From contig PFRW01000051.1 of assembly GCA_002788755.1 (NCBI GenBank), positions 1 through 44,131 on the forward strand: 44,131 nucleotides of DNA, in the 5' to 3' direction. The translations under genes were made by a program, and so were the position numbers. The DNA comes from Candidatus Peregrinibacteria bacterium CG_4_9_14_0_2_um_filter_41_14 (lineage in GTDB: Bacteria; Patescibacteriota; Gracilibacteria; UBA1369; UM-FILTER-41-14). Shown in pieces: positions 5,528 through 43,838 of the stretch (its first letter is position 1; the number at the start of each line of letters is the position of its first letter). The notes under the pieces were generated by a model. It searched no databases. It was not told the origin of the DNA and saw only the letters and a list, made by a program, of their open reading frames with translations.

Positions 5528-8500
5528 ATGTTACAAAACCAATTTGGAAGCCACAAGACGAATAACCAAAATAGTTTCACCTTTAAGGAAAAACACCTAA
5601 TCGGATTCGAACTGTTTGGCGATCTTGAAAATGAAAGTACCAACGACCCAAAAATTGAAACAGTGCAAAACCTCCAAAAAAGTCTCAATACAATCAAAAA
5701 AAATGACGAAGACACAACCGAACATAACACAAGCATTGAAAAATCAATTTATGAATTACTAAACGACGAACACGACCTAGACACAACAACGGCAAGCATG
5801 ATTGCTAAACATTTAAGCAATAAACTTAAAGAAAAAAACGGCGCCTATCCGGACGGAAACCTCCAAAACCGCGATATCGTTGTCAAAAACAAAGGTAACA
5901 AAATTACCGTCTCAACCCACGAAGAAACAAGCTGGTACGACCTCGAGAATTACGAAAACACCTATTTTACAGACACAGTGGATTTAACAGATGAAGATAT
6001 TCAAGAAATCATTAACGAAAACATTGCAAACAAAGCCGTAGCAACCAGTAGCCTTTCCAGTTACATAGATCGATCCAAAGTAGTTCCCGAAGATGATCGC
6101 TGGAGAAGCAGATATCTACTATTTCAAACCGAACAATCGTTACAACAGATCAACAAAGAACCCCTGGAATCAGATGAATATTACGGTGTACCTAAAAACT
6201 TTACCGATCGTTTTAATGACGCAACAGGTATGAGAGAAGCAATTTTAACCGAACAAATTAGTGATAGTCAAAATCTCGTTAAACTATTTGCCAGGCTTGG
6301 CATCAACCAACGTCAATTTTTAGAAGAATCATTTGGCTCAAGTTTTTTTGGCAATCTAGAACCTGGTGTTTCCGCACAACAAATTTTTGAATTCAGCAAT
6401 TTAAGCAAAAAATACGACACAATTGAAGATGCCCAAAATCGTCTTCAAATTTTAGCCAAAGATCCCGACACAAATCGCAAAGAAATAAGCGAAATCACCA
6501 GAAACATCCGTGATATCCGCGCCCTTGGCGAAATGTTAAGAGACTTGGAATACCACGCGCCTGACAAAAAAAATCCTGACTACATTAGTAAAATTAATTT
6601 TAGCAATGCCCTAGATGCCAAAAGTAAAGAAGCCTTTAAAGATAACCCAGCAATTATAATGGCACTTATGGGCTATCTATATGGCTTAAAAAATCTACAA
6701 AAAGAACAATACGTCAGCTACAGTCTAAACTCCGATCAACGGTTCGAAGCCTTTATCGAAGAAGTACCGGCAAGAGACTACGACAAATTACTAAAAGCAT
6801 ATCAAAAAATTGATATCACATGGGCACTTGGAAGCCAAACTCTAACGGAAGGTATTCAAGAATTATCAAAACCGGAATATGCGGACGTAAGAAGCATCCT
6901 CGATGCTGCAAAACTAGATTACATTGGACAAGGTGACAGCCCCATTGCAAGTGACATCGCAAGCCTTATCGCCAATCCTCTGAATACAGGTCCCATTAAC
7001 GAAGACTATGAAACATTAACTCAAGAAGAAATGACCGGTCCCGGCGCTACCGCCGAGTCTGCAAACTTTGTTAATCGTCAATACTCACAAAAAGCGATCT
7101 ACGAAAGTATTCTCCGTGACTGCCGTGACTTTAAAACAAACCAATACGATCTAACAAAATTAGAAACAAATCTAAAACGCTACGCCGAATATGGACGTTT
7201 ATACATCGCCCAAAACCCGGAAGCGCTTAAAGAAAACAATACATCACTTCTAAATACTCAGTGGCCGGAGAACACACCGCTACTCAACGCTCTAGCCGAT
7301 AAAAACTTAATTCAACTGATTCGACATGGCTTTTTACTAGAACAAAAAGTAAAAAATTCAACAAAAAAACAAGTAAAGGGATTAGACCAAGACTTACAAC
7401 AAAACAAAATTAATCCTCAAGAATTAGCACACTTCCTCACCGGCCTACACCTTGATAAAGACGGACTAGAAAAATTAGGTCTTGGCGCCGCACTAGTGAT
7501 CAATTTAGACGATGCAGGTAATCCAAACCAAAACAGTATTCATGTTGGCGGTGCAGCCAATGTCCTTGATCCAAAAGAAAGCGGCATTATTATCACATTT
7601 AGCCGTAACAATACGGAAACCGGAACCGAAGCCAGTGCTGGCACAGTGCTCAACCCTTACACAGCCAATATCGGTTTCAGTATTAAAGGTGAAATTTCTA
7701 AAAATTACCACATACGTCTTAACGGTGGCATTGGCACATTTGGACCAGTCCTTGCCGCCAGTATAGGCGCCGGCTTTGGTCGCGACTTAAAGACTTACAC
7801 AACCGAACACGAAGAAGAAACAATCAAAGAATTCTACGACACAAAAGGCACTGTTTTTGAAGAACTCAATGCGGCTCAAAAAGCCAAAAAATCCGAAACA
7901 GAGCAAATGGCGATTGTTAATAAAATCCCCCACCTTAAAGAACTACACGAATATTTCACAAAGCAAACCCCGCCTTTACCAGAAAAACAAATTAATGAAA
8001 TTTTCATCGGTGAAAACGGACTAGCTAATGAACTACAAAACAACATAAAAAATTATGCCGTTGAAAACACAAGCGAAGTAGGTTGGGAAGTTGGCGGTGG
8101 ACTTGCGTTCGTCGATATTTTTGGCGTAACAGTTCCTATCCCCTATGCCTACATTAGTCTGGAACTTCCAACCGGCAAAACCATTATGCGTTACAGCATG
8201 CCATCAGACGTTGAAGCCAACACACAAATTCAAATGGAAGATGCCATTCAAGCACAATTACTTGAACAAGCGGGCACAAGCCAAAATCTAATAGTTACAT
8301 CAACAAAAAGCGGCGAAGTTTATTTCGATAAAGAAACCGGCCAATGGCGTATAAACCAAACGCGTGGGATTCCAGAACTTGGCACTTTAAATGCAGACCA
8401 AAAAGCCAAAGCCAAAAAACTCACAGAAGCATACAAAGCTTATGGCATCACCTTTAGTGAGATTACAGATCCAGCCTATACCACAAAAGATGGACTCAAA

Positions 8501-10339
8501 GACAATGGCTATCTAGCTATGGAACTAAATACAGATTTTATTGGAGATAACAATGTTGAAGTCCACGTTGATCCATCCGCTAGCGGCATTCACCTAACCA
8601 CCCTTGGCGAATCAACCGATGACGGTAAGCTTAAATTTGCCGCCAACGTTAATGGTGCCAAAAATCTATTCATTACAAGACGAGAGAACCTCAAAGCTGA
8701 CGGTACCAACAATATCATCATCACAATCACCGACAAAAAAGGTATGTCACTCGAAGAAATCGAAACCAAAGAGCCCGGATATTATCATTTCCAAAACAAC
8801 CGTATGAAATATGTAAATGGTACATATTTTGAAGGACAACCACCAACGCCCGACAAATTAACTTTAGGAGGATCAAATCGTAATATCGAAAACAGACTAT
8901 TCAATAATCAAATAATTACGCCAGAGATACTAAATAGTAGTGAATACATTAACAAAACACTAACTACAACCACATCTCCGGACAGCCTTATGGCAGAACA
9001 TACACAAACATTAAATACATTAGTTAAGAAGCTAAGCACAAAAGATAAAAAAGGGTACGCCGCAATTTCAACTCTAAAATTAAAAGATGGCGAAATGCCA
9101 AATCTAGAAAAGATTAGCACTTTCATCAACACACAATACAAAAAAGCATTCCCGGGCAAACAGATAACCCAAGCGGAATTTCAATACCTCTATGAAAAAA
9201 TTACAGAAGAAACATTTGTCGATCTTAATACGATAAAAAATAAAGAAGCTCACATCAACCATGTAATAGGCATGTCCGATCGTTTCATAGATCGCGCCCT
9301 TAAAAACGCACCTACACTTAAAACAAAATTCACACCTGCAGAAATACTAATCATTAGACAAGAAATCAAAGAAGATTTTAAAATCGCCCTTCAGGGACCA
9401 AGTGAAACAAAGTTCAACACTCAATCATTAAAAGACGCCGGTCTTATCGAAAACTACTTCGTCTCCACAGCAGCCAACCAAGCGGTTGGCCTAGAAAACA
9501 AAGGATACCGCTACGTTGATACCAATGATGATAGCAGCATTAAAATACTAGAAAACTCAATAACTCAATACAGCTTGACCAAGGAAGGTGCATCAAACGA
9601 AGAAAAACTTGTAGCCAAATTCATCCTAGAACTCAGCGATCCTATTGAATCAACATCAAATGCTATAGATCAAGCCCACACATTACTCGGCTCACAATTA
9701 GCCATCAAACTTGCAACTCTACCAATTGGTATGCAAGGTGGCAAAACAATCAATTTCTTAGCACTAAAGATGGGTCCACAAAATGCACAAATAATAGCTG
9801 ACCTAATTAATGATCCACTAAATCTCTTTAGTGGTAACGGACAAGAATTCGCCCCTGAAATGAGCCCCGCTTATAATGAATTTTTACAATTTGTAAAAGA
9901 AATACGTCAAAATCAAATAGACGGTAAACCATATAAATTTGAAGTAGGAGAAGGCAACAACAAAATGCAAATTGAAATGAACATGCCAACACAACTATCC
10001 AGTCTCCTTTTATCTCGATGCGGTAATACAACTTTTGCCAGCCATGAAGGTATCGAAATCAAAGTCACCAATGCTCAAGGCGAAATGCTAGGAGGCTACG
10101 CCGAGAACAAACTTCACGGATACAAGACAACAGAAAGCGCCGACACTGCCAAGCTTACACTAGGATTATCATTTAAACCTGATGTCCCAACTAAGAAAAC
10201 ACCTGGAGGAGGCGGCGACGGAGAAGGCGGCAAAGAACCCACCCCACGCCCTGATGATACCGGCGGCAGTCCCGCTGTTCCCAAAGAAGACTCTAAAACA
10301 GTAACAGGTGGCGGTGGCACCACAGAACCAAGCCGCTAA
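5528..10339 (+). CDS. Large hypothetical protein (1603 aa)
   Basis: Uninterrupted 4.8-kb ORF divergent from tpiA. No classical signal peptide; Gly/hydrophobic beta-strand-like middle block; Pro/Gly-rich tail. No family recognised. Confidence 0.88.
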   Translation: MLQNQFGSHKTNNQNSFTFKEKHLIGFELFGDLENESTNDPKIETVQNLQKSLNTIKKNDEDTTEHNTSIEKSIYELLNDEHDLDTTTASMIAKHLSNKLKEKNGAYPDGNLQNRDIVVKNKGNKITVSTHEETSWYDLENYENTYFTDTVDLTDEDIQEIINENIANKAVATSSLSSYIDRSKVVPEDDRWRSRYLLFQTEQSLQQINKEPLESDEYYGVPKNFTDRFNDATGMREAILTEQISDSQNLVKLFARLGINQRQFLEESFGSSFFGNLEPGVSAQQIFEFSNLSKKYDTIEDAQNRLQILAKDPDTNRKEISEITRNIRDIRALGEMLRDLEYHAPDKKNPDYISKINFSNALDAKSKEAFKDNPAIIMALMGYLYGLKNLQKEQYVSYSLNSDQRFEAFIEEVPARDYDKLLKAYQKIDITWALGSQTLTEGIQELSKPEYADVRSILDAAKLDYIGQGDSPIASDIASLIANPLNTGPINEDYETLTQEEMTGPGATAESANFVNRQYSQKAIYESILRDCRDFKTNQYDLTKLETNLKRYAEYGRLYIAQNPEALKENNTSLLNTQWPENTPLLNALADKNLIQLIRHGFLLEQKVKNSTKKQVKGLDQDLQQNKINPQELAHFLTGLHLDKDGLEKLGLGAALVINLDDAGNPNQNSIHVGGAANVLDPKESGIIITFSRNNTETGTEASAGTVLNPYTANIGFSIKGEISKNYHIRLNGGIGTFGPVLAASIGAGFGRDLKTYTTEHEEETIKEFYDTKGTVFEELNAAQKAKKSETEQMAIVNKIPHLKELHEYFTKQTPPLPEKQINEIFIGENGLANELQNNIKNYAVENTSEVGWEVGGGLAFVDIFGVTVPIPYAYISLELPTGKTIMRYSMPSDVEANTQIQMEDAIQAQLLEQAGTSQNLIVTSTKSGEVYFDKETGQWRINQTRGIPELGTLNADQKAKAKKLTEAYKAYGITFSEITDPAYTTKDGLKDNGYLAMELNTDFIGDNNVEVHVDPSASGIHLTTLGESTDDGKLKFAANVNGAKNLFITRRENLKADGTNNIIITITDKKGMSLEEIETKEPGYYHFQNNRMKYVNGTYFEGQPPTPDKLTLGGSNRNIENRLFNNQIITPEILNSSEYINKTLTTTTSPDSLMAEHTQTLNTLVKKLSTKDKKGYAAISTLKLKDGEMPNLEKISTFINTQYKKAFPGKQITQAEFQYLYEKITEETFVDLNTIKNKEAHINHVIGMSDRFIDRALKNAPTLKTKFTPAEILIIRQEIKEDFKIALQGPSETKFNTQSLKDAGLIENYFVSTAANQAVGLENKGYRYVDTNDDSSIKILENSITQYSLTKEGASNEEKLVAKFILELSDPIESTSNAIDQAHTLLGSQLAIKLATLPIGMQGGKTINFLALKMGPQNAQIIADLINDPLNLFSGNGQEFAPEMSPAYNEFLQFVKEIRQNQIDGKPYKFEVGEGNNKMQIEMNMPTQLSSLLLSRCGNTTFASHEGIEIKVTNAQGEMLGGYAENKLHGYKTTESADTAKLTLGLSFKPDVPTKKTPGGGGDGEGGKEPTPRPDDTGGSPAVPKEDSKTVTGGGGTTEPSR

Positions 10340-10605: not shown

Positions 10606-13515
10606 ATGCCTAAATGGAAAATCATGAAAAAAACCGGTATGTATCTGGCAGCAACAGCCACCGCCGCTCTACTTAGCTTAGCGCTATTTCAAACTGCCAC
10701 AATCGCACAAAGTACATGTACTCCAAATCAAAACACTTTTAGAGATGGACTTGTATTAGAGGAATGTCCCAATGGTACAACCTCCCCAACTTTTAATGCA
10801 TACAAAAATTACGAATACAAAGATTACACTCGTTTTGATGAAAGAAATTTCTTACAAGTACGTAAACTTACAAACGGTGCTTACGTCGATAACGTCTCAG
10901 TATTACCAGGTGACACACTACGTTTTAACGCTTATTTACACAACAACTGTGATCCAAGCTTAAATGATGGTGGCAATGGTGTTTGTGTTGCGCACAATGT
11001 CGAAACATTTGTTCGACAATTCCTTGAGAACAATCAACAAAACTTTCAAACCACACCCTCACTTAAACAAACAATTACGCAAACGTTTTCAGCATCAAAC
11101 GCTACACCAAGACAAGTAACAGATGACGTCGTTGTACGAAGTGCTGACAATCAAAATATCGTCTTAGAATACATCCCAAATACCGCTCTTTACTATAATG
11201 CGCTCAATCCTGATCGCACATATAAATTATACGCCAGAGAATTATTTGGTAATGGTGCGCAAGTAACATCAGTTAATCGTAATGGCACAATAAATAACGA
11301 CGGTGACTTTTTTGGCAGCTCCGCTTACATCACCTACTTTAATTTCGACGTCATCATCAAACGACCCCCAACCCCACCGCCAAGCGCAGCGTGTGTAAAC
11401 CTACAAATTACAAACGTTGTAAATAATGCCGATGGCTCAATTAATTTTAGCTGGACCACAAATCCAACTGACTATGCAGATAAAGCGGTACTAGCCCTTA
11501 AACAAGGCCCTGGTACTTTAGAAATGCTCGGCAACAACCGGGCACGTCTTAGCAACTTTAACAAAGATACAGTTGTTACTGTATTTGTTCCGGGATCAGA
11601 GCAACAATGTAAAGATGAGCTACCTGTAGCCCCTTACATTCCCCAAAATCCATGTTATGACCTTGTCTTAACTCCAGATAAGTTTAACCCACTCGAACCT
11701 AGTCATAGATTCAGTGTGCAAACTAATCCAAACAACTATAACGAATTAAACTGGAAACTAACCGGACCAAACACCGACGTAACCGTGATGGTTGCCGGTG
11801 ATAAACGTTCGGCCGTCTTTACCAATTTAGGACCCGACCATGTAGTTAGCGTCTTTGCCACAGGTGAAGTTGCTCCGGGCAAAAAATGTGAAGACGAAGC
11901 TCGATCACAATTACCTCCTCCAACAGAATACTGTTTAGCTGCTAACCTAAAACCAAATCATTTCCCTGCCAATGGCGGACGCCGTGAATTTGTATTTGAA
12001 TACACACCTAACGAATACAAAGGTGACTTCATTTGGCGCACAGTTCCTGCCAATGTTGGTCTATTTGCCGACGGTTCGCAGATTGGCAATGCCATTACCA
12101 CCCGTGCCCGTCGCGTTGTTTATCGCGGTGGTCAACCGGGTACACAAGTAATTGTCGAAGCCAAAGATCCGGCCTTTAGATCAAAATGTACCGACATTGC
12201 CATTGCCCGAAACGACGTCCCGGCCGACGAAAACGACAACCTAGTTAAAACTGCTGATATCAGTCTTGCAAAACCAGGTGACACAGTGACTTACAATATC
12301 ACTTACAAAAAAGACCCGTTCTTCCAAAGCGACACAAACAACGTCACAATCTTCGATACTATTGGTAAAGAAGGCTTTGTCAGCGGTGATCGTGGTGGCA
12401 AAATTGTACCTGTAGCGGGATCGATGCGAGTAAACTTGCCAGTTTGTACCGGACTTGCCGCCACTAACTGTTACACAGGCTCAATCCTTAATCCAAACGG
12501 TATCACCTTACAACATTTTACAAATACCGCTCCGGTTAACATCTCTTACAAAGCAACCGTAAACACAGTGATTAATGCCGCCCTTTGCGAAAACCTTACC
12601 AACACTTTCTGTGGAGAAAAATTCACAAACGAAGCATTCGATACCGAAAATCACTTTGCTACTTGGACAATTACCGTTTTATGTCCAGCCTTCCGCAGCT
12701 TCGGCTTTGGCGATATCTTCCTAGAAGATACATTTAAAGGCGGTATCGATACCCTAAAATGTAACGGTAAACCAAATACTCAAGGTATTGTGGTAACTCC
12801 AACTAAACCAACAGACAACAAAATCGTAAGTACAGGTGAAGACGCTTCTCGTCGTCCAGAACATGGCGAATGTAAAAATAGTGATATCTTCCCTAACTTA
12901 TCGTCAGCTTTATGTGAGTTACAATCACAATTATCTGACGAGTTCACCAACAATCCTTTACGAACATTAACTCGTAATGCCGAACTGGTTTGTACCAATG
13001 CCTTAATTCGCGATAACGTGACCCTAAGAAACGGATCAATTTCCGAACTTCGTCAATACGCCAATCCAAACAACACTAACGAACTTGTAATCTGTGCCAA
13101 CACAATCACAACAACCGGCCCAATTACAATCGATTACGATGGCCCTGTAACTTTGGTCGCTAAAAAAGGTCTAACCATTAATGGTGACATCCTTTACAGC
13201 AAAAACACCAAAATCACACCATCTGTAGTCGCCGTAACCAACGGTGCTATTACCACCAACAAAACTAAAAAACTAAGCGGTATTTATATCGCCCTACCAA
13301 ACAGCGACAATCTTATTGCACCAATGGTCATCAATAACGATACAAGCCGCCCCGGTGCCCCGTTTGAAGTAGTTGGCTCCCTAATTGGTACCAGTTTCGA
13401 AGTTCAAAACAACGACTTCAACATCATCTACGACCTCGGTCGCTTCCTAATCACAGAACCTTCTGTGCTAAACGATGCCTTAGACTTTATTCAAGAAGTT
13501 ACGGTTAATCAGTAG
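10606..13515 (+). CDS. Secreted Cys-rich multidomain surface protein with a DUF11-like module
   Basis: Signal peptide (MKKTGMYLAATATAALLSLALFQTATIA; start may be 10624), three Cys-bracketed repeats, DUF11-like LVKTADISLAKPGDTVTYNITY, and a C-terminal G.L.I.GDI / GIYIA / V.GSLIG / IIYD solenoid-like region. Confidence 0.85.
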   Translation: MPKWKIMKKTGMYLAATATAALLSLALFQTATIAQSTCTPNQNTFRDGLVLEECPNGTTSPTFNAYKNYEYKDYTRFDERNFLQVRKLTNGAYVDNVSVLPGDTLRFNAYLHNNCDPSLNDGGNGVCVAHNVETFVRQFLENNQQNFQTTPSLKQTITQTFSASNATPRQVTDDVVVRSADNQNIVLEYIPNTALYYNALNPDRTYKLYARELFGNGAQVTSVNRNGTINNDGDFFGSSAYITYFNFDVIIKRPPTPPPSAACVNLQITNVVNNADGSINFSWTTNPTDYADKAVLALKQGPGTLEMLGNNRARLSNFNKDTVVTVFVPGSEQQCKDELPVAPYIPQNPCYDLVLTPDKFNPLEPSHRFSVQTNPNNYNELNWKLTGPNTDVTVMVAGDKRSAVFTNLGPDHVVSVFATGEVAPGKKCEDEARSQLPPPTEYCLAANLKPNHFPANGGRREFVFEYTPNEYKGDFIWRTVPANVGLFADGSQIGNAITTRARRVVYRGGQPGTQVIVEAKDPAFRSKCTDIAIARNDVPADENDNLVKTADISLAKPGDTVTYNITYKKDPFFQSDTNNVTIFDTIGKEGFVSGDRGGKIVPVAGSMRVNLPVCTGLAATNCYTGSILNPNGITLQHFTNTAPVNISYKATVNTVINAALCENLTNTFCGEKFTNEAFDTENHFATWTITVLCPAFRSFGFGDIFLEDTFKGGIDTLKCNGKPNTQGIVVTPTKPTDNKIVSTGEDASRRPEHGECKNSDIFPNLSSALCELQSQLSDEFTNNPLRTLTRNAELVCTNALIRDNVTLRNGSISELRQYANPNNTNELVICANTITTTGPITIDYDGPVTLVAKKGLTINGDILYSKNTKITPSVVAVTNGAITTNKTKKLSGIYIALPNSDNLIAPMVINNDTSRPGAPFEVVGSLIGTSFEVQNNDFNIIYDLGRFLITEPSVLNDALDFIQEVTVNQ

Positions 13516-14808: not shown

Positions 14809-17800
14809 CTAACGAATCTGCACTACCCCTTTGTCTGTTCCCGATAAAACAATTTGCTCTTTATCTTTTAAGTTTTGTAGTGTGGCCGGCTCTGTCACAA
14901 ATTCACCCGGATTAACCACACGTGCATAATAGTAATAGTCATGGTCATTACAACTATTATCGCCAATCACACAGAAAATACTGGCACGTACATTCTGGCC
15001 AAGCTGATAATTTAAATACAAACGACCCTGAGACCACTCAGCATAATTAACTACAGGAAGCACTTTCAAACCACTTGGTAAAATATCGCCAATCACATAT
15101 GACCCCTCGTGGTCCCCAACATTCACATCAAAGACAACCTTAACTATATCCCCTTTGCTAAATGCTGTCGTTTGTTTTCCATCTACCCAATAACTACGCT
15201 TAATCTTAAGGACATCAGCTTGTTTAACATCAGCGTAAGCCACTTTTTGAGCATAATCAGTTACTGCAACTAAATCACCTTTAATATCAGACACCTTTAA
15301 TGAGGCAATTTCTTTGGGCAATAAATTCATTTCATAAGTTTGATTACCAACCAATTTCACTTTCTTACTATTAACCTTAAATTCAATCGCTTCGGTAAAA
15401 CCTTTCCCTAAACGTGACTTTGTATAAATTAACTGTTCCAGTAAAACACTATCATTTTGAGAAGCCACAAATTCACTACTTGTCGCATAAGCATGCTGCC
15501 ATAAGCGATCACGTTGATCACTATTAAGCTCTGAAGCAACATAAGCCAACATTGTTTCCGCCGCCACAGCATCCTCCGGCACAACAAACTCTTGAGCATT
15601 AAAGCTTACTACCGCCTGCCTAAACCAATCTGCGGCCTTTGACTTAGCACCAACTTTGGCATAGGCAACTGCCACCCACAACTGCTCATCAAACTTATTT
15701 AACTTTTGATTTGCAACCAAGTAATCCAAATCCACTAAGACAGACTCTTTTAATCCGGCCAAACCGGCTAAAGCTTGTAATTTTTCCACCAATTGATTTT
15801 TATTACTTAAAACAGAATTAAAATAAATTTTCATCTCTTCTTGATTCCATAAAGCAGGAGCCAAAATCGCCAATTTTGTTGTCGCCTCCAAACTAGCATC
15901 ACTATAAGCAAATAAACTAATTCCACCTTTATTTTTAGCCTCTTGATAAACCAATACCGGTGTATCCACTTTTAACAAACCACGCTTATAATACTCATTC
16001 AATAACTCACCTGCCACATACTGACCAGCCACATAATCGGCTCGATCAACATTATTATATAAAGACCGTGACAACAACGGATACAGCTTCCCCAGTTCTT
16101 GATTAACAAAGGTCAAATTAACACGACCATCATATTGTTGAGCAGCAAACGGCATCCCCTCTGTTACCTGTACAACCGCTTGTGCCGCTACTTTAAATCG
16201 AGAATCAACAACCTCAATCGGCAACTCAATTTTATCTGACTTTCCTTTTGCCTTCACAACGGTACTAATCACATGCTCACCCAATTTTAAAGGCAATGCA
16301 AAGTAGCTATTACTAAAGGCTTTGCCCGTTTTTGATTCATTATATCCTAAAGTTTTTGCAATCATTTCAAAATCGACTTTGTCAGTTACCGCCAAAATCT
16401 TACCAAACGCACGTACCGGAATTTGCGGCTTATCACCAACATTGTAGTCTGCACTAATTACCGGCAAAGCAAACAAATCTTGTGTCACCACAACCGGTGC
16501 CACCGCTCGTCCCACTCGCACAACATCACCACCGCTAATTGCCACAACCGATAAACGCCACTCGGTAATATTATCCGGTAATTTAACTTTTAAAGTTGCC
16601 TTACCACTACTATCAGTATTAACAGACGCAAAATAGGCTGTATCCTTAAAGTCACTGCGTCCACCTTTATCGTTATGCACATAAACTCCTTCCGCAAAAT
16701 AAGTATGATACTGCTCAACTTCAAAATTATAAACTGTGACAAATTCCCGCTTAAGCTCAACACTATTAACCAAAACCTCTTCACCATCACTTGTAACCAA
16801 ACGATCACCCACTTTAATTTTAGCGGCCAACTGCCACTGATTATTTACCCACACTACATGCACACCGGTCACATTAATTCGCTCATTAATTACCAAATAC
16901 TCATCTACGTTTGTTTGATGTAACCCGGTAACACGACCATTCACCAACGTTGAATCCCACTCGCTCGCACGTGTTTTAACTTGATCATCAATTTGTACAT
17001 CTTCAATTACCTTATAGCTACCATCTGCCATTAAAACTTTAGTACCAGCCAAGAAACACCCTCCCTTCTCACCACTTACATCATCTATTTGAGTATGAGA
17101 AAGATAAGAATAACTACCATCTAAATACAAATGTTTATAAATAGCCCCCAATGGGTCGGTTAACGCCTCACTAAATAGTGCATAGTAAGCTTCATCCACC
17201 AAGCGCACAGTTAAGTTGGCCGCCACCGGTTTCCCGGTATTGGCATCCTTAACCTCTACTTCAATGTCCGCTTCGTCACTGGGAGCATACTCGGCTTTAG
17301 TGGCTTTGGCATTAACGGTTAGTTCCCTATCGCTAGTATCCAAACCAATATCAATTGTAGTAGAACGACTATAATGCCGCCCATTAAATACCATCATCGA
17401 TGCATACACATTCGGCACATCTTCCTTGCCAAATTTAAACTCATAATTAGCATCACTTTGTAATTTGTAATTAAGACCTCCAACCTGCTTATTCATAAAC
17501 AAATAAGCAGTATTTGCCGACTTTGGACCAACAGCGGTTAAAGAGACCGTTTCCCCAATTTTATAATTAAACTGATTCCAATCACGGCCATCGGTGGCTT
17601 CCAAACTATAATAATCACTATCAGTAGACGTAGTGCCAAGATTCAAAAATTTACTCCCCTGATAGTCACGCCCCGACTTAACTACATACGACAACGTATA
17701 ATTAAAATCGGAATCCAAAGGCGCATCAAACTTAAAATCAATCTCCCCATTAGCATCAGACACAAAAGTATTTTTCATTACCGAATTCGTCCTCTTTTTG

Positions 17801-20130
17801 TACTCATACTTTTTACGTGTAACTTTACCAACGTAATCATAATATTCCCCAGCCAACACCCGGTCATACCGTGAACCTTCCACATTCACTACCACACTTA
17901 CATTGGCTGCTGACCCAACAATAATATCCTCCAAATCAGGGATAGAAAGTGCATTGCGATCTACCTTATTTAAATCAATTTTCGCTATATTCAAAGCAAA
18001 ACCATCTTGATCAAATTCAACATTTTCCACCGCTTCGCGGCCCTGATAAACAACAATATCCAATGAGTCAGCAATATAGCCCAATTCTTCACTAACAGTC
18101 GTTACAGTATGCCGATCACCTCCCACTAAACCGGACATACGATAAGCCTCCTCATCCGGAGACAACTTAACTGTCACCTTGCCCAAGTCATCAGTTGTAT
18201 AAACATTATTATCCAATTTAATCTTTGTTTGCGGAACAGGTGTACCGTCAAAGAAATTGGCTTTAACCTCCAAATTTACATCTTCATCATAATAATACAA
18301 ATACTTATCAGCCTGTAAATCCAAACCATATGCCGGCTTCACATAATCTTCAATCGCAATCCCCTCCGTCATTAACCAATTATCATCTTGATACACCGCT
18401 AATGTGTAATACTGATTAGGATTCAAATTGGCAAAACTAAATTCGCCACTAAAGGAACCGGTACCATCAAGTTCAATTCCCTGCTTTGCCAAAATCTTAC
18501 TGACATCGGCAGGTTTGGTTCTTGCACCAAAATAATCATCTACCAAAATCACTTCCGCTTTTCCCCTCAGCTTACTGAATCGCCCTTGTAAAAAGCCGGA
18601 GAACTTTACCGTATCGGTAGGCTTATAAACAGTACGATCAGTCATAAATAAATTCCAACTATCTTCACCAATCGCTTTGGAATCCAAACTATACTGCGGT
18701 ACATAATATGTAGTCATCGCCTCTGTTTCAACCACTACACCGGAATCATTGGCAATCTTATAATTAAACAAAGCAACACCGTCCTTTCCGGTTTTAATAA
18801 CATCTTTATCCACAGATACTTTTGCCCCCACCACCGGTTTACCGGTAGCAATATCATTAACCCAAACCAACGAGGCCGATTCGGTAATATCGATGTAAGT
18901 AGCCGTATTTGTCACCTGCAAGAAAGCCTGCCCCACTCCACCGGCACTTGCCAATTTTATCAAAAAATAACCAGCCGGCAGCTTGTCCGGAAATCCAATC
19001 TGATAACGCCCATTAACCAATCTTGCTTCGTATTCTTCCAAATCAACAATTTTAGTTAAGTTAGTCGTACCACTCTTATAATTCCTACTTTGATAAGAAG
19101 TCCAACTTGGTGCATTTTTTACATAATTAAGACGTTCGTTCAAAAAGGCGTCTCCACTCGGATATTGATAAACAGTAAGCGCAACATTAGCAATATCCTG
19201 CTCATTATTTGCAGAATCATAAAACTCTATCCCCTGATTATCCAATGGTGAAAACTCATAAAGACTCCGCATTATAGAGAAATAACTCTCCCTATCAGCC
19301 CCCCTACCTGTTTCAAATTCAAAACTATATTCACCAAGCTCCCGACCCTTAATTGTCACGGTATAAATGGACATTGGCGCTAAGCTTTCATCAGGCACAA
19401 ACAACATTGTCTTACCTCGATTTTCAAAACGCCCAGCAACAACCGGACTAATACTAAACATTTTTTTATAATCATCAACAGTCAAACCAGCATGTGAAAA
19501 AGTAATCTCAATCCCCGAATTAATTGGTGCATTTATCCCATACTTACCAGGTACGGTGGAAGTAACACGCAACCCATCATTAATCTGAAACGCCCACTGC
19601 AACTGTTGATCCGCCAAGGCCAACTGATAAATCTCTCCCGGCTGTAGCTCAGTTTTTGGCTTAATAGTGATCTCATTGGTACTTACCTTTTCAAGATCAA
19701 ACTCCGTTAGTGGTGCAAATGTTAAATTAGCTTGAATACTACTCACATCCAGATCGATTGTCTTGCTTGTTAATTTAAATCCTGAATCAACCGCCACAGC
19801 ACCGTTAACTTCCGTCACAGGTGTAATTTTGTACTCATCGTAAGCACTGGCAACATCAATCAAGTTTGGCAAAAGAATCAAGTTTCCGCCCGGCGCCAAA
19901 AACTGTGTCACAACTGCAATAAGCACTACTACCGCCGTAACCGGAGCCAACCATTTAAATGTCAGCCAATTACGCTTAACGCCAACATGCGAGACTTGTT
20001 CAGCCTTTTCAAGTAACCGCGCCCGTAAAGTCTGTTTAAAATACTGCTGCTTATCAACATCTATCTGTTTTTTAAATTTATTAGCCATATTTTTGAGAGT
20101 TTGTTGAAGTTTATTAAACGAATTAGTCAT
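14809..20130 (-). CDS. Membrane-anchored alpha-2-macroglobulin-family protein with Ig-like domains, an internal Hint domain and no CxEQ thioester
   Basis: MG2-like FMTDRTVYKPTDTV and EDYVKP, YAPSD...LVDEA, A2M core RSDFKDTAYF...TDSSGKA...LPDNITEWR, C-terminal GDIVKV...DILPSGL...YYARVVNPGEFVTEPA. TM helix at about aa 60-79. Confidence 0.92.
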   Translation of the reverse strand: MTNSFNKLQQTLKNMANKFKKQIDVDKQQYFKQTLRARLLEKAEQVSHVGVKRNWLTFKWLAPVTAVVVLIAVVTQFLAPGGNLILLPNLIDVASAYDEYKITPVTEVNGAVAVDSGFKLTSKTIDLDVSSIQANLTFAPLTEFDLEKVSTNEITIKPKTELQPGEIYQLALADQQLQWAFQINDGLRVTSTVPGKYGINAPINSGIEITFSHAGLTVDDYKKMFSISPVVAGRFENRGKTMLFVPDESLAPMSIYTVTIKGRELGEYSFEFETGRGADRESYFSIMRSLYEFSPLDNQGIEFYDSANNEQDIANVALTVYQYPSGDAFLNERLNYVKNAPSWTSYQSRNYKSGTTNLTKIVDLEEYEARLVNGRYQIGFPDKLPAGYFLIKLASAGGVGQAFLQVTNTATYIDITESASLVWVNDIATGKPVVGAKVSVDKDVIKTGKDGVALFNYKIANDSGVVVETEAMTTYYVPQYSLDSKAIGEDSWNLFMTDRTVYKPTDTVKFSGFLQGRFSKLRGKAEVILVDDYFGARTKPADVSKILAKQGIELDGTGSFSGEFSFANLNPNQYYTLAVYQDDNWLMTEGIAIEDYVKPAYGLDLQADKYLYYYDEDVNLEVKANFFDGTPVPQTKIKLDNNVYTTDDLGKVTVKLSPDEEAYRMSGLVGGDRHTVTTVSEELGYIADSLDIVVYQGREAVENVEFDQDGFALNIAKIDLNKVDRNALSIPDLEDIIVGSAANVSVVVNVEGSRYDRVLAGEYYDYVGKVTRKKYEYKKRTNSVMKNTFVSDANGEIDFKFDAPLDSDFNYTLSYVVKSGRDYQGSKFLNLGTTSTDSDYYSLEATDGRDWNQFNYKIGETVSLTAVGPKSANTAYLFMNKQVGGLNYKLQSDANYEFKFGKEDVPNVYASMMVFNGRHYSRSTTIDIGLDTSDRELTVNAKATKAEYAPSDEADIEVEVKDANTGKPVAANLTVRLVDEAYYALFSEALTDPLGAIYKHLYLDGSYSYLSHTQIDDVSGEKGGCFLAGTKVLMADGSYKVIEDVQIDDQVKTRASEWDSTLVNGRVTGLHQTNVDEYLVINERINVTGVHVVWVNNQWQLAAKIKVGDRLVTSDGEEVLVNSVELKREFVTVYNFEVEQYHTYFAEGVYVHNDKGGRSDFKDTAYFASVNTDSSGKATLKVKLPDNITEWRLSVVAISGGDVVRVGRAVAPVVVTQDLFALPVISADYNVGDKPQIPVRAFGKILAVTDKVDFEMIAKTLGYNESKTGKAFSNSYFALPLKLGEHVISTVVKAKGKSDKIELPIEVVDSRFKVAAQAVVQVTEGMPFAAQQYDGRVNLTFVNQELGKLYPLLSRSLYNNVDRADYVAGQYVAGELLNEYYKRGLLKVDTPVLVYQEAKNKGGISLFAYSDASLEATTKLAILAPALWNQEEMKIYFNSVLSNKNQLVEKLQALAGLAGLKESVLVDLDYLVANQKLNKFDEQLWVAVAYAKVGAKSKAADWFRQAVVSFNAQEFVVPEDAVAAETMLAYVASELNSDQRDRLWQHAYATSSEFVASQNDSVLLEQLIYTKSRLGKGFTEAIEFKVNSKKVKLVGNQTYEMNLLPKEIASLKVSDIKGDLVAVTDYAQKVAYADVKQADVLKIKRSYWVDGKQTTAFSKGDIVKVVFDVNVGDHEGSYVIGDILPSGLKVLPVVNYAEWSQGRLYLNYQLGQNVRASIFCVIGDNSCNDHDYYYYARVVNPGEFVTEPATLQNLKDKEQIVLSGTDKGVVQIR
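16672..17058 (-). other. Hint (intein-like/BIL) autoprocessing domain, 129 aa, inside the A2M (residues 1025-1153)
   Basis: Block A CFLAGTKVLMADG, block B VTGVH (TxxH), block F/G VYNFEVEQYHTYFAEGVYVHN. No endonuclease domain. The +1 residue is Asp. Confidence 0.95.
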
Positions 20131-20694
20131 TGTAAATTGGGGTTAGATGCTTAGATAACCGTTTTAAAGCCCGGTTAAGCTTAACTCCCACATTACTTGT
20201 GGAAGTATTAAGAACATTAGCAATATCTTCATAAGAAAGTTCTTCAAAATAACGAAGCGTTAAAACGTCTTGATCTCGGACTTTAAGCGCCGTAAAAGCC
20301 ACCGATACCTGTAAAATATCTTGCGCACGCTCTTCCTGTAGCTCTTCCGTTTTTAGTGAATGATCAGCTGCATCCGCAGACCAATCAAACTGTTGCATTT
20401 TTTCCTTATACGCCATTTCCGACTTTTACTCCTAAAATGCTGCCGTAATTCGTTCAGCGCAATTTTATACAGCCACGCAATAAAAGGCTTGCCGGTCCAT
20501 GTATAACCATCAAGCTTATTTAAGGCTATCAAAAAAGTTTCAGCTGTTAAATCTTCAGCCAAACCCACTTCGCCCAATCGCGTCAGCAAATATCGATAGA
20601 TTGCATCAAAGTACAAATCGTACAAAGCAACAAATTTGGTTTTATCAACCTTGGCCGCTGCTACCAATTCCTCCACATTAATTTCATTTTCCAT
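20123..20694 (-). pseudogene. ECF sigma-70 factor split across two frames (sigma2 part 20694-20353, sigma4 part 20416-20123)
   Basis: Upstream ORF has LYDLYFDAIYRY...AEDLTAETF...FIAWLYKIALN (region 2). Downstream ORF has VLTLRYFEELSYEDIANVLN.S.SNVGVKLNRALKRL (region 4). Adding one base near 20419 gives a 190-aa ECF. Confidence 0.85.
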
Positions 20695-20706
20695 TGCCAA
20701 TATTAA

Positions 20707-20735
20707 AGGGCTTTACAACTATAATGCAAAGCCCT
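20707..20735 (-). terminator. Hairpin after glnA, likely terminator
   Basis: Minus strand AGGGCTTTGCA-N7-TGTAAAGCCCT (11 bp, one G-U) followed by TTAATATT. Confidence 0.6.
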
Positions 20736-20748
20736 CCATTTTATTACA
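20723..20748 (-). promoter_or_regulatory. Candidate autoregulatory ECF-type promoter
   Basis: TGTAAT-N16-CATT about 30 nt upstream of the ECF ATG. Resembles the TGnAAC-N16-CGTy layout of ECF promoters. Confidence 0.35.
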
Positions 20749-20752
20749 CTTT

Positions 20753-22090
20753 TTAATAAAACTCCAAATACCGATCTCGCTCCCACTGTGTAACTTGCAT
20801 GCGATAATCATTCCATTCAGCCGTTTTAGCAGCATAATAAACCTTAAACGAATGCTCCCCCACTGCAGCTCTAATTACCGGATTATCACGCAATTCATCA
20901 ATCGCCTCTTTTAAGGTTGATGCCACAAAACCAATACCACGTTTTTCCAATTCCTTCGGACTAAAATCAAAAATATCTTCTTCCACCGGTTCCGGTGCCT
21001 CCATTTGTTTTTCAATCCCATCCAAACCGGCTGCCAACATTACCGCAAAAGCCAAATACGGATTTGCCGTTGGATCCGGACATCTTAGCTCACAACGCAC
21101 AGCCTGATCTTTACCGGGTGTAATTCGTGGAATTCTAATTAAAGCTGATCGATTGCGCGTTGCCCAAGCCACATTTACCGGTGCTTCATAACCAACCACT
21201 AACCGTTTATAAGAATTAACCAACGGATTCATAATCGCATTCATTGCCTTAATATGAAACATTTGCCCGGCAATAAACTGCTTAGCCAACAACGACAATT
21301 TGTGTGTATCTGCTCCATCAAAAAAGACATTTTTCCCTTCACTAAAAAACGACTGATGCACGTGCATCCCCGAGCCATTAATTTTAGCCACCGGCTTTGG
21401 CATAAAAGTAGCATGCAAACCTCGCTTAGAAGCAACCGACTTTAAGACATGCTTAAACGTTAAGGCGTTGTCTGCAGTGGCAACGGCCAAACCATACTTA
21501 AAATTAATTTCGTGCTGCCCCTCAGCAACCTCATGATGCAACGCTTCTACATCCACCCCCATCTCCTGTAACGCATGTGTCATCTCACATCGAACCTCGG
21601 CTGCCAAATCCAAATCTTGATCAAAATACCCACCTTTATCGTGCGGTAAAGTCTGGAGCTCACCATCACCATTACGAGCAAACAAAAAGAACTCCAATTC
21701 CGGCCCTACATAATAATCAAAGCCCAACCTTGCAGCCCGTTCCACCTGCTTTTGCAAAATATAACGTGGGTCACCTTCAAAACGTGATCCATCCGGCATA
21801 TACACATCACAAATAAACCGAGCAGTCACATTATTTGTTTTCTTTGTCCAAGGCAAAATCGCAAATGTAGTCAAATCCGGCTTTAAATACATGTCACTCT
21901 CAAAAATCCGCGTAAACCCTTGAATACTCGATCCATCAAACCAAACATGATCCTCCAGCGCATCCGCCAACTTAGAAACAGGAATCGTCACCGCTTTCAA
22001 CATCCCATGCAAATCCGAAAATTGCAGATCGATAAACTGCACCCCCTGCGCCCTACTCTTTTCTAAAACTTCTTGTTTCGAATATGTCAT
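20753..22090 (-). CDS. glnA: Glutamine synthetase type I (GSI-alpha-like)
   Basis: FDGSSIQGF, GPELEFF, HHEVAEGQHEI, ATFMPKP...NGSGMHVHQS, NRSALIRIP, ELRCPDP.ANPY. Phe at the adenylylation-Tyr position (EEDIFD). Start moved to ATG at 22090. Confidence 0.97.
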   Translation of the reverse strand: MTYSKQEVLEKSRAQGVQFIDLQFSDLHGMLKAVTIPVSKLADALEDHVWFDGSSIQGFTRIFESDMYLKPDLTTFAILPWTKKTNNVTARFICDVYMPDGSRFEGDPRYILQKQVERAARLGFDYYVGPELEFFLFARNGDGELQTLPHDKGGYFDQDLDLAAEVRCEMTHALQEMGVDVEALHHEVAEGQHEINFKYGLAVATADNALTFKHVLKSVASKRGLHATFMPKPVAKINGSGMHVHQSFFSEGKNVFFDGADTHKLSLLAKQFIAGQMFHIKAMNAIMNPLVNSYKRLVVGYEAPVNVAWATRNRSALIRIPRITPGKDQAVRCELRCPDPTANPYLAFAVMLAAGLDGIEKQMEAPEPVEEDIFDFSPKELEKRGIGFVASTLKEAIDELRDNPVIRAAVGEHSFKVYYAAKTAEWNDYRMQVTQWERDRYLEFY

Positions 22091-42073: not shown

Positions 42074-43690
42074 TTATTCTGCCAGCCGAATTACATCTTT
42101 TAAACTGATAATTAAAATTAATAAAATCAAAAAGACAAACCCGACCAAATGAATAATTGATTCAACCCGCGGATGAAGCTTTTTGCCGCCTCTAAACACC
42201 TCAATAACTACAAACAAAATGCGTCCACCATCTAACGCCGGAATTGGCAAAACATTAATAACCGCCAAACTCAACGAAATAAGCGCCACTAACCAAATCA
42301 ACGACTCTTTATCATACCGCAAAAACTGCGTTGTAATTTGTGTAACCGCTACCGGTCCGCCTACTTCATCCGGAACTTCAAACTTGGTAAAAATTCTTGC
42401 CACTACCGAACCAAAACTTTTCACAGTTGTCTTCCCTAATCGATAAGACTCTGTGACAGCAACAAAAGGCGCCACAGGCCAAGGTGCCTGCAATTTTTTC
42501 GCCGTAATAATCGATCCCAACAAAGGCGACATCACAATCTTATTTACAATTGGCCGGATCATAATCACTTCATCCAAAAAGACACCAATTCGCCCATTAT
42601 CTTTTTCTAAAATTTGGATTTCTTGCGGCACGCCCTCTACTAACAATTTTAACGTAATCGGTGCCGCCAACTCATTCAAAGTTTGGCTAGCCTGCATTGC
42701 CGATGTTACTTTTATATTATTTACAGCTACCAAAATTCCTGCTTTAGGAACCAAATTTTTGGCCGCGGGACTGCCCTCTAAAACATCACTAATAACAACA
42801 CTGTGCTCATTACTTGCCTGTACCTTTAACTCAACAACATTGCCGCCTCTATATACAAGAATCCGATTCACATCGATCAAACTTGCATTTGCCAAATCTT
42901 CAGCATTAAAAACCGGCCGCTCATTAATCCGCAAAATTACATCACCAACCGCCAAATCATAATTATTTGTTACATCCAACTCTAACACTTTAGGTCGCAA
43001 CAAATTTGCCGGCGAATACATATTAGCACCAAAAGTCGTAACTGTTCCGGCAGCAAACACATGCGCCTGCACCGTTTGCCCATCCGGATTTTTAAAGACA
43101 AACTCATGATCCTGCGGAAGTGGCGCCGTCAACAACTCAGACAATTCCACATAAGTCTCCGGAGCCTGTTTATCGATTTCAACTAAACGAGCCAACTTTT
43201 GAATACCAGCTTTATCGGCCTCAGAACCAACAGCCACCGACTTCACTACCAAGTTTGGCACATGTAAAATTTCACTATTTTCCAGCTTATCCCTAAAATC
43301 ATCCAAATCCCCAATAATTGGATCCATCCCAAACCCAATACCAATTGTTAGCAACACAATCGCCACCAACAAATTCATCACCACCCCCGCCAACAAAATC
43401 TCAATCCGTTGCCAAGGTGTCTTACTCGCAAAACTATGTTTCGACTGCAAAATCCCCCCATCCGTTTCATCTTCCCCATAAAGCTGCACATAACCACCAA
43501 ACGGAATAATATTTAATGAATAAACCGTATCCCCCACTTTCTTCTTAATTAACTTGGGACCAAAGCCAATTCCAAACGCTTCCACCTTCACACCATTCTT
43601 TTTGGCCATCAAAAAATGTCCCAACTCATGAATAAAAATCAGAAACCCCAGAATTAAAATTGCGAATATAATTGCGAGCCATAAAGGCAT
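42074..43690 (-). CDS. rseP: Site-2 (RIP) metalloprotease RseP-like, M50 family, with an extended multi-PDZ region
   Basis: HELGH, FGIGFGP, IPFGGYV, AGVVMN, NVLPIPALDGG, plus about three PDZ-like segments. Start moved to ATG at 43690. Confidence 0.93.
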   Translation of the reverse strand: MPLWLAIIFAILILGFLIFIHELGHFLMAKKNGVKVEAFGIGFGPKLIKKKVGDTVYSLNIIPFGGYVQLYGEDETDGGILQSKHSFASKTPWQRIEILLAGVVMNLLVAIVLLTIGIGFGMDPIIGDLDDFRDKLENSEILHVPNLVVKSVAVGSEADKAGIQKLARLVEIDKQAPETYVELSELLTAPLPQDHEFVFKNPDGQTVQAHVFAAGTVTTFGANMYSPANLLRPKVLELDVTNNYDLAVGDVILRINERPVFNAEDLANASLIDVNRILVYRGGNVVELKVQASNEHSVVISDVLEGSPAAKNLVPKAGILVAVNNIKVTSAMQASQTLNELAAPITLKLLVEGVPQEIQILEKDNGRIGVFLDEVIMIRPIVNKIVMSPLLGSIITAKKLQAPWPVAPFVAVTESYRLGKTTVKSFGSVVARIFTKFEVPDEVGGPVAVTQITTQFLRYDKESLIWLVALISLSLAVINVLPIPALDGGRILFVVIEVFRGGKKLHPRVESIIHLVGFVFLILLILIISLKDVIRLAE

Positions 43691-43838
43691 GATAAAAATT
43701 TTAAATAAAGCTAAGATACAATAAGGGAAACTATGGGAGTTTGCAACTTTGGTAATAATTCCCAAAAAACTAACTAAGAATTACACAACAGAACCGCAAA
43801 TATAGGAAATCTGTTCCCGGGACAACACTAAAGATCAA

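Follow-up and report, generated by a model that had tools for sequence, protein, structure and literature searches.

The locus described here raises the question of why the gene of an extracytoplasmic function (ECF) sigma factor runs directly into the gene of a large surface protein that combines an alpha-2-macroglobulin (A2M) body with a Hint domain. It is found in contig PFRW01000051.1 of Candidatus Peregrinibacteria bacterium CG_4_9_14_0_2_um_filter_41_14 (assembly GCA_002788755.1), a groundwater bacterium with a small genome that belongs to the CPR/Patescibacteria; the window is the whole stretch of 44,131 nucleotides analysed. In the favoured reading, to which we give a probability of roughly 0.7, the two genes form a sigma/anti-sigma operon that is autoregulated, the anti-sigma factor carries a self-processing A2M-like ectodomain, and an RseP-type protease is available in the same genome. 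The existence of a conserved system is well supported by sequence comparison and modelling, and the mechanism suggested for it is plausible.

The A2M-Hint gene is an intact open reading frame (ORF) of 1773 amino acids (aa) at 14809-20130 on the minus strand. It shares 8 nucleotides (nt) with the ECF sigma gene (20123-20700, minus strand): within the overlap, ATGACTAA, the ATG of the A2M-Hint gene lies at 20130-20128 and the TAA of the sigma region-4 ORF at 20125-20123. The glnA gene is located upstream of the sigma gene, the A2M-Hint gene is the final one of the unit, and the next gene, holA, is convergent. The operon comprises the sigma and A2M-Hint genes only, with no further candidate anti-sigma gene within it. 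The elements that concern the coupling of the two genes are the following.

20353..20700, minus strand: region-2 half of the ECF sigma factor, with the ATG at 20694 (Pfam Sigma70_r2, 2.1e-12)
20423..20424, no strand assigned: indel site, where public contigs (Logan) hold an extra T on the plus strand, i.e. an A in the A-run of the gene strand
20123..20416, minus strand: region-4 half of the ECF sigma factor, with the stop at 20125-20123 (Pfam Sigma70_r4_2, 3.3e-13)
19957..20130, minus strand: predicted anti-sigma domain, i.e. the cytoplasmic N-terminus of the A2M-Hint protein (residues 1-58), rich in Lys/Arg and with an FK..L...L..K helix
19891..19953, minus strand: single transmembrane (TM) helix, residues ~60-80, followed by Pro-Gly-Gly (Kyte-Doolittle scan)

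Among 185,579 species genomes (one genome per species) 454 related loci are found, and the counts given below refer to the best 80 of these, numbered with an L. The upstream sigma was called with a purpose-built hidden Markov model (E < 1e-5). An ECF sigma gene lies directly upstream in 47 of the 68 assessable loci (46 and L100, in which the 5' part of the A2M gene is broken) and is missing from the other 21, while 11 loci lie at contig edges and one is broken. The distance from the sigma stop to the A2M start is between -14 and +58 nt in 43 of 46 pairs, 16 of which overlap. The N-terminus in front of the TM helix varies together with the sigma gene. The start-to-TM distance is 34-113 aa in all 46 sigma-coupled loci, and of the 21 loci that lack a sigma, 14 have 0-16 aa and 7 have 23-54 aa. 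The difference is also seen between sister loci, L055 having a sigma and 109 aa and L045 no sigma and 12 aa, and likewise L057 (sigma, 73 aa) and L054 (no sigma, 11 aa). A FastTree phylogeny was calculated for 74 ectodomains with the N-terminus and Hint columns excluded (16 of the 80 loci were dropped as cut off, broken, masked or unassessable, and 10 loci from the genome search, some of them duplicates, were added). The minimum number of changes in sigma coupling over this tree lies between 9 (well-supported branches) and 12, FastTree support being weaker than that of a careful search. Nine independent pairs can be compared, with a long N-terminus taken as 34 aa or more (a cut-off chosen after inspection of the data): it changes in the same direction as the sigma in a mean of 8.5 pairs and in the opposite direction in 0 (sign test, median p = 0.004).

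A few loci depart from the simple arrangement. The members of one clade (L044, L062, L068 and L097) are sigma-less and still have an N-terminus of 29-54 aa before the TM helix, which may have been left over from a coupling since lost or may serve a partner encoded elsewhere. In one clade (L034, L036, L039, L040, L073, L098 and L068) another ECF sigma gene follows the A2M-Hint gene at a distance of 0.7-3.7 kb, and in L068 it is the sole sigma gene near the A2M-Hint gene. In the genome of the window another ECF sigma gene (contig 49, L104) is followed by a gene for a single-pass protein with a cytoplasmic N-terminus of ~90 aa and an extensive part outside the membrane. The two look like another sigma/anti-sigma pair, an arrangement that is the local norm.

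The sigma factor has regions 2 and 4 only and scores above the cut-off of the ECF superfamily model, which by sequence places it among the ECF (group 4) factors, proteins of about 180-220 aa. The region-4 half alone reaches 52.4 bits on the sigma70-ECF model TIGR02937 (cut-off 42.9), and intact homologous sigmas reach 91-108 bits. The best NCBIfam match of the region-2 half is the BldN-family ECF model, below cut-off. For three of four intact homologous sigmas the best model is also BldN-family (114-156 bits), and for the fourth, from L034, it is SigM-family (102.5 bits), all below cut-off; a specific equivalog cut-off is reached by none of the sigmas scored. In the window the sigma is not a single ORF. 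Its two halves lie in different frames that overlap near short A-runs, and the region-2 frame turns to junk past about 20424, owing to a 1-nt indel. Positions 20050-20800 were compared with Logan contigs from four public groundwater/aquifer runs, which possibly include the source sample of the window, probably stem from one campaign and do not amount to independent replication; among the runs listed for the stretch none is of RNA. All three contigs that span the site (X1, X2 and X4) have one T added behind position 20423 of the plus strand, are otherwise identical to the window and place the halves in one shared frame; the fourth contig stops at 20427. In the relatives L002-L006 both sigma halves are in a single frame as well. 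The split most likely reflects either an error of 1 nt in the consensus or variation between strains, and since the three spanning contigs all restore one frame, the sigma is most likely intact in the organism.

The co-fold was calculated for the intact pair of L002, with the sigma factor (189 aa) and residues 1-64 of its A2M partner as input and their own alignments of 43 and 44 rows. The interface score ipSAE is 0.84, 0.83 and 0.82, and the best of three controls reaches 0.02; the mark used to judge it is attained by 58 of 80 solved complexes and by 2 of 110 mismatched pairs, a calibration that is only rough here, with custom alignments. The pLDDT confidence of the partner is 70-74, and at least 85% of the contacts are common to the runs. 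Partner residues 12-47 form one side of the interface, and on the sigma side lie residues 16-58 in region 2 and 103-184 in the linker and region 4. Contacts of the highest confidence are made with sigma region 2 by partner residues 31, 32, 35, 36, 39, 42 and 43. These residues make up a conserved FK..L...[IL]..K motif (alignment A3), represented in the window by F31, K32, L35, L39 and K42. The co-fold supports binding of the sigma factor by the N-terminus.

The tight coupling of the genes, the joint gain or loss of sigma and N-terminus, and the difference between 0.83 and 0.02 in the co-fold make it very probable that the ECF sigma has its cognate anti-sigma factor in the A2M-Hint protein. This protein is encoded by the gene directly downstream, has a single-pass topology and, in the model, contacts the sigma across regions 2 and 4 (ipSAE 0.83). 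A preliminary description of the locus, made from the sequence, had claimed that the stop of the sigma region-4 ORF overlaps the A2M start and that the A2M protein acts as the anti-sigma factor; the 8-nt overlap is borne out, and the second claim is supported by the gene coupling, the behaviour of the N-terminus and the co-fold. Two of the checks that it proposed agree with it: among the related loci found in genomes a sigma is present in 47 of 68 assessable loci and a Hint domain in 80 of 80, and the co-fold of sigma and N-terminus, run on the L002 homologue, gives 0.83 against 0.02. A proline after a hydrophobic stretch disfavours cleavage by signal peptidase. A long, cleaved signal peptide was considered for the N-terminus and rejected, given that the N-terminus tracks the sigma, that the co-fold reaches 0.83 and that a proline stands after the hydrophobic stretch. 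The protein would work like an anti-sigma factor, yet it falls outside the described anti-sigma domain families.

The part of the protein beyond the membrane is about 1690 residues long, A2M-like and thioester-less. Its recognisable elements, in the order of the protein, are listed below.

19345..19575, minus strand: Big_5 bacterial Ig-like domain, residues 186-262, the first recognised extracellular domain (PF13205, 1.1e-7)
17176..17568, minus strand: A2M bait-region domain (A2M_BRD), residues 855-985 (PF07703, 3.8e-9)
17059..17121, minus strand: flexible, variable linker resembling a bait loop, residues 1004-1024, ending in Gly-Gly before the first Cys of Hint (low pLDDT)
16672..17058, minus strand: Hint domain, 129 aa, Cys1025-Asn1153, with Asp1154 at the +1 position (PT-HINT, 1.5e-12, residues 1035-1154; TIGR01443, intein C-terminal region)
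16414..16641, minus strand: A2M domain, equivalent of macroglobulin domain 7 (MG7), residues 1164-1239, directly after Hint (PF00207, 9.3e-8)
15211..16233, minus strand: region between MG7 and MG10, presumably at the CUB/TED-equivalent position (weak match to Salmonella A2M 1300-1636)
14869..15201, minus strand: C-terminal bMG10 domain, residues 1644-1754 (PF17973, 4.2e-8; profile match to the YfhM C-terminus, 4.5e-12)

The protein belongs to the A2M superfamily by its domains (PF07703, PF00207 and PF17973 above cut-off, together with the PDB matches), and Pfam matches to bMG3, MG2 and MG3 are present below their cut-offs. It lacks the thioester motif CxEQ, which is found in 0 of 35 full-length family members. 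The region in the CUB/TED-equivalent position has neither this motif nor any cysteine, and the only cysteines of the whole protein are 1025, 1720 and 1727. A profile built from the 35 full-length homologues and searched against solved structures has as its best relatives 2lwy (8e-18), the YfhM C-terminus, MG7 of human A2M, TEP1, C3 and C4, and the alignment with human A2M MG7 begins five profile positions past the end of Hint. The AlphaFold model of residues 840-1300 (37-row alignment) has a mean pLDDT of 85 and shows Hint with beta-sandwich flanks, which in Foldseek match C4, ECAM, Salmonella A2M, A2ML1, CD109 and C5. Two low-confidence linkers flank the Hint domain (model residues 165-183 and 316-324, i.e. 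1004-1022 and 1155-1163 of the protein), the pLDDT being below 50 in the first. The columns of this first linker are variable in the 35 full-length proteins, yet G1023 is invariant and G1024 nearly so. Judged from these alignments and the model, Hint is inserted between the bait-region domain and MG7, which is the bait position. The Kyte-Doolittle scan gives one strong hydrophobic segment only, at about residues 55-88.

With regard to the anatomy, the preliminary description (N-terminus, one TM helix, Ig-like domains, macroglobulin body, Hint in the bait position) agrees with the Pfam, hydropathy, profile and fold matches. It had also stated that the protein is neither a lipoprotein nor paired with pbpC, and this stands: the unit is flanked by glnA and holA, the first Cys of the protein is residue 1025, and no PbpC-type BiPBP_C domain is found in the same genome, which is 90% complete. 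Of the suggested protease trap, the A2M body and the bait-region domain are there and the CxEQ thioester is not.

The Hint domain is found in 80 of 80 inspected loci at the same site, with a length of 128-131 aa, mostly 129. In these loci its N-junction is mostly G-G|C-F and its C-junction H-N|x; at +1 there is Asp, Glu, Asn, Gln or Ala in 77 loci and Ser in the other 3, never Cys or Thr. In the window it is preceded by GEKGG and ends in His1152-Asn1153, followed by Asp1154. The conserved catalytic set consists of Cys1, TxxH and His-Asn, and the residues G1023, C1025, F1026, T1088, H1091, H1152, N1153 and K1155 are invariant in 35 of 35 full-length proteins. The best PDB sequence match of the domain is 2lwy, a "bacterial intein-like domain" (8e-18), to which the model is superposed by Foldseek with a target-normalised TM-score (TMt) of 0.85, a root-mean-square deviation of 1.8 Å and 31% identity; for 6y75 the TMt is 0.81-0.83. 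The domain is thus classed, from sequence and fold, as a type-A bacterial intein-like (BIL) domain with predicted cutting or splicing activity. A canonical class-1 intein is ruled out by Asp1154 at +1, where Cys, Ser or Thr would stand. The pretoxin Hint of polymorphic toxins (PF07591, a model that the domain does match and the source of the NCBI name of relatives) was rejected as well, with MG7-MG10 and no toxin domain following.

According to PMC4031507, BILs lack the +1 nucleophile, type-A BILs end in His-Asn, and these form the N-terminal thioester and cyclise the Asn. The same source reports that type-A BILs can splice by attack of the freed amino group and that cleavage products dominate (PMC4031507). 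In the present protein all residues for a Gly1024-Cys1025 thioester and for Asn1153 cyclisation are kept and the +1 nucleophile is absent. From the known chemistry of type-A BILs, the exported chain should be cut in the bait loop, cleavage dominating, or should lose the Hint domain by the nucleophile-free BIL route.

The family is not confined to the window and its closest relatives. A search of a set of 5.8 billion proteins with residues 960-1260 returned 255 proteins at E <= 1e-5 among 5152 candidates. By the Pfam column, 114 of 120 among the matches listed join Hint-family and A2M-family domains, and the other 6 are other Hint proteins. The sources list them under unspecific names ("polymorphic toxin-type HINT domain-containing protein", "Ig-like domain-containing protein", "alpha-2-macroglobulin family protein"); the organisms named among the matches listed are Peregrinibacteria, Gracilibacteria, Uhrbacteria, Magasanikbacteria and Parcubacteria. 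A match is found in 25 of 40 relatives of the genome of the window, and the Hint domain is present in 13 of 19 loci retrieved. Judged from these matches, the family is large and centred on the Candidate Phyla Radiation (CPR)/Patescibacteria. Several contigs with CPR-type genes (L037, L038, L042, L048, L050, L054, L095 and others) are labelled "uncultured Gammaproteobacteria", "Nanoarchaeia" or "Flavobacteriales"; such non-CPR labels are probably those of mislabelled bins. In the genome of the window (0.96 Mb, 90% complete) this gene accounts for the sole A2M-domain protein and the sole PT-HINT match, and there are about three ECF-like sigma factors.

All four combinations of the modules occur in the family: sigma with Hint (most loci), Hint only (21), sigma only (L013) and neither (L015). 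Hint is therefore dispensable for the coupling, and the sigma is dispensable for the Hint-bearing ectodomain. In the two homologues that lack it, L013 and L015, the place of Hint is taken by a short Gly-rich connector with the same flanks (GGKGG ... D.G..R).

Two further elements of the window bear on regulation.

20720..20748, minus strand: promoter-like motif TGTAAT-N15-GCATTATA, 25 nt before the sigma ATG, a candidate autoregulated ECF promoter
42074..43765, minus strand: RseP/RasP-type site-2 protease, M50 with PDZ, unlinked to the operon (PF02163, 198 bits)

The bipartite motif TGTAAT-N14/15-GCATTATA is present upstream of the sigma genes across the clade of the window. In its strict form it is found at 7 of the 46 coupled loci, all from this clade, with only 2 other matches in 1.55 Mb (both strands), and near-variants occur in three more loci. 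In the genome of the window it is found at this operon and at one other place, and a control with the reversed pattern gives 3 matches. The sole supported target is the operon itself, with no evidence from these motif counts of further targets in the genome, and the motif fits an autoregulated loop that raises the amount of surface protein once the sigma is freed. An inverted repeat, AGGGCTTTG...TAAAGCCCT, is located between glnA and the sigma gene (~20712-20742, minus strand) and shares positions with the -10-like half of the promoter motif; it could terminate glnA transcription, serve as a hairpin in regulation, or do both. The M50 protease is the only M50 match of the genome, and the individual stretches that match PDZ families are below threshold. 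It is of the enzyme type that releases membrane anti-sigma factors and would be available for such a pathway.

The proposed sequence of events can be outlined as follows. Damage to the A2M-like ectodomain, or its engagement, would be passed on through regulated proteolysis. The N-terminal ~58 residues would form two helices that clamp the sigma between its regions 2 and 4, as suggested by the model and the comparative data. The A2M-Hint protein would be exported and would then process itself, giving a two-chain or spring-loaded A2M-like ectodomain. The ectodomain could be destabilised if foreign proteases attack its variable linker or if the C-terminal half is lost; more proteolysis near the membrane, and then cleavage by the M50 protease, would follow. 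The freed sigma would drive the promoter of its own operon, and more surface protein would be made.

Several observations weigh against the favoured reading as a whole. A2M-Hint genes without a sigma in 21 of the 68 assessable loci indicate that the ectodomain has a function of its own, and L013, coupled to a sigma and without Hint, that Hint processing is not essential to the coupling. An N-terminus of at least 34 aa is retained in 4 of 21 sigma-less tree rows, by the same post hoc threshold, and no Pfam anti-sigma family matches any of 8 N-termini at E <= 10. The co-folded pair comes from a homologue, with an A2M protein that shares 36% identity with that of the window, and the co-fold may pass partly by likeness to solved sigma/anti-sigma complexes. 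The strict promoter motif is not found outside the clade of the window among the 46 sigma-coupled loci, and the one-operon regulon is derived from a genome that is 90% complete. Finally, site-2 proteases need a substrate with a short stub, and a cut at residue 1025 would keep about 940 extracellular residues on the membrane fragment, which would hardly be a stub ready for site-2 cleavage. Because these ~940 residues remain, Hint processing looks more like a step that matures or arms the ectodomain than like the site-1 event. The suggestion in the preliminary description that bait cleavage or Hint autoprocessing outside the cell could trigger sigma release is unsupported, and Hint and sigma are separable.

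The alternative that survives best concerns the Hint domain. It would be a domesticated or neutral intein-like insert removed by clean type-A BIL splicing, so that the sigma/anti-sigma pairing stands and Hint has no part in sensing. The Gly-rich flanks of L013 and L015, which precise excision would restore, and the separability of Hint from sigma coupling are in its favour, as is the splicing of type-A BILs without a +1 nucleophile; however, the same source gives cleavage products as dominant (PMC4031507). Hint is also the best-conserved part of the protein, with a mean pairwise identity of 47% against 33% for the remainder. Its identity climbs with that of the host protein (rho 0.37), and among the homologue pairs compared no outlier points to recent transfer. 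At 129 aa it is too short for a homing endonuclease. The fixed length of 129 aa and the invariant catalytic residues across many CPR lineages argue for a selected function of Hint, and we consider the neutral insert unlikely, though it is the rival to be taken most seriously.

A bolder reading, which we regard as improbable, gives the Hint thioester the role of the missing CxEQ. After export, Hint would turn the Gly1024-Cys1025 bond in the bait loop into a thioester, to be resolved neither by water nor by the C-terminal fragment of the chain. Instead a target amine or hydroxyl, from an attacking protease or a host-surface molecule, would be captured on Gly1024. The target would thereby be bound covalently to the N-terminal fragment, which stays anchored in the membrane, with release of the C-terminal half, and the anti-sigma end would report the event, in a single turnover. 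This would be a transfer of the Hedgehog or BUBL kind, built into a macroglobulin and wired to transcription. Its precedent is that BUBL BIL domains are among the closest structures; the thioester of these domains probably passes the upstream domain to another protein.

It is very improbable that the A2M-Hint protein is merely a co-transcribed target of the sigma, serving as surface defence against proteases of hosts or neighbours, with a long signal-anchor as its N-terminus. The occurrence of the family without a sigma and the lack of a known anti-sigma family in the N-terminus would agree with this, and PMC8080830 proposes a defensive role for A2M-domain membrane proteins of another CPR bacterium. 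Against it, the N-terminus comes and goes with the sigma in 8.5 of 9 independent pairs (mean over pairings), and the co-fold, in which both sigma regions are contacted, scores 0.83 where the best control scores 0.02. The operon has no other anti-sigma candidate, its A2M gene being the last before the convergent holA, and the proline behind the hydrophobic stretch disfavours signal-peptidase cleavage. That the system is dead here, the sigma being a frameshifted pseudogene as its two frames in the window would have it, is scarcely credible given the frame-restoring base in the contigs of all three spanning runs, the A2M gene unbroken across 1773 codons and the intact sigma genes of L002-L006.

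Two ORFs of the window that converge on the A2M-Hint gene, at 5528-10339 (plus strand, 1603 aa) and 10606-13515 (plus strand, 969 aa), have no Pfam match at E <= 1e-4. The GC skew is strongly negative in each 2-kb bin of the window (positions 1-44131; -0.14 to -0.44), irrespective of the coding strand, and the GC content is 38-47%.

If the favoured reading is true, the locus represents a new type of ECF sensor, in which a whole macroglobulin is the ectodomain of an anti-sigma factor, and a new A2M/complement subfamily with a self-processing domain at the site where cleavage governs the activation of A2M and of C3-C5. CPR bacteria have not been cultured, are found attached to other cells and possess few regulators. 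Since the family is widespread among them and regulators are few (about three ECF-like sigmas here), the module probably ranks among the chief routes by which their cell surface is connected to gene expression. Tests in E. coli are feasible with parts of this size, so that the role of a conserved, non-mobile bacterial intein-like domain is directly testable.

No description of A2M joined with Hint/BIL or with an anti-sigma factor was found in the literature searched (subscription papers and supplementary tables not covered), in line with the remark in the preliminary description that the architecture seems undescribed. Each of the parts, i.e. the ECF sigma, the single-pass anti-sigma, the bacterial A2M and the type-A BIL, is known singly, and the combination differs from every described relative. 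In the CPR predator Vampirococcus two large A2M-domain membrane proteins are mentioned as possibly defensive (PMC8080830).

The closest bacterial A2M proteins of known structure are YfhM (ECAM) and Salmonella A2M (5a42, 4ziq, 4u48). They share with the present protein the MG body, the bait-region domain, MG7, MG10 and an outward-facing anchor in the cytoplasmic membrane. In contrast to them, CxEQ is absent here (0 of 35) and Hint occupies the bait position; the anchor is a TM helix with a cytoplasmic extension rather than a lipoprotein anchor (no Cys before 1025), and there is neither a pbpC neighbour nor a BiPBP_C domain in the genome. The YfaS type, with MagD of Pseudomonas, is a thioester-less bacterial A2M encoded in a multi-gene operon. 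The absence of the thioester is common to both, and one database source calls a relative of the present protein "YfaS (alpha-2-macroglobulin family)", but the YfaS/MagD type is not known to have a Hint or sigma coupling, and here the operon is limited to sigma and A2M.

As far as Hint is concerned, the BIL of Clostridium thermocellum (2lwy) has the same fold, Cys1, TxxH, His-Asn, absence of a +1 nucleophile and mini size. Like other type-A BILs, the domain sits in a host protein outside the cell (PMC4031507); unlike them, it is kept across CPR at one fixed site of one family, at a functional hot spot of A2M. BIL2 of Tetrahymena BUBL1 (6y75, 6tmm) is the second-ranked structural match (TMt 0.81-0.83). 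It is eukaryotic and has a ubiquitin-like upstream domain, and for the A2M family a transfer is only proposed.

The RsgI (SigI systems) and FecR/FoxR-type proteins are single-pass anti-sigma factors with N-terminal sigma binding, a self-cutting extracellular part and release by a site-2 protease. They differ from the present system in having other autoproteolytic folds, which are adjacent to the membrane, whereas here the cut would take place ~940 residues away in an A2M scaffold. The complement proteins C3, C4 and C5 belong to the same superfamily (PDB matches). They mature into two chains, and their activating cleavage occurs where the bait would be in the A2M topology, a place taken up by an extra domain, the anaphylatoxin. 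They are cut by other proteases and not by a built-in Hint, and C3 and C4 have the thioester that is missing from the present family.

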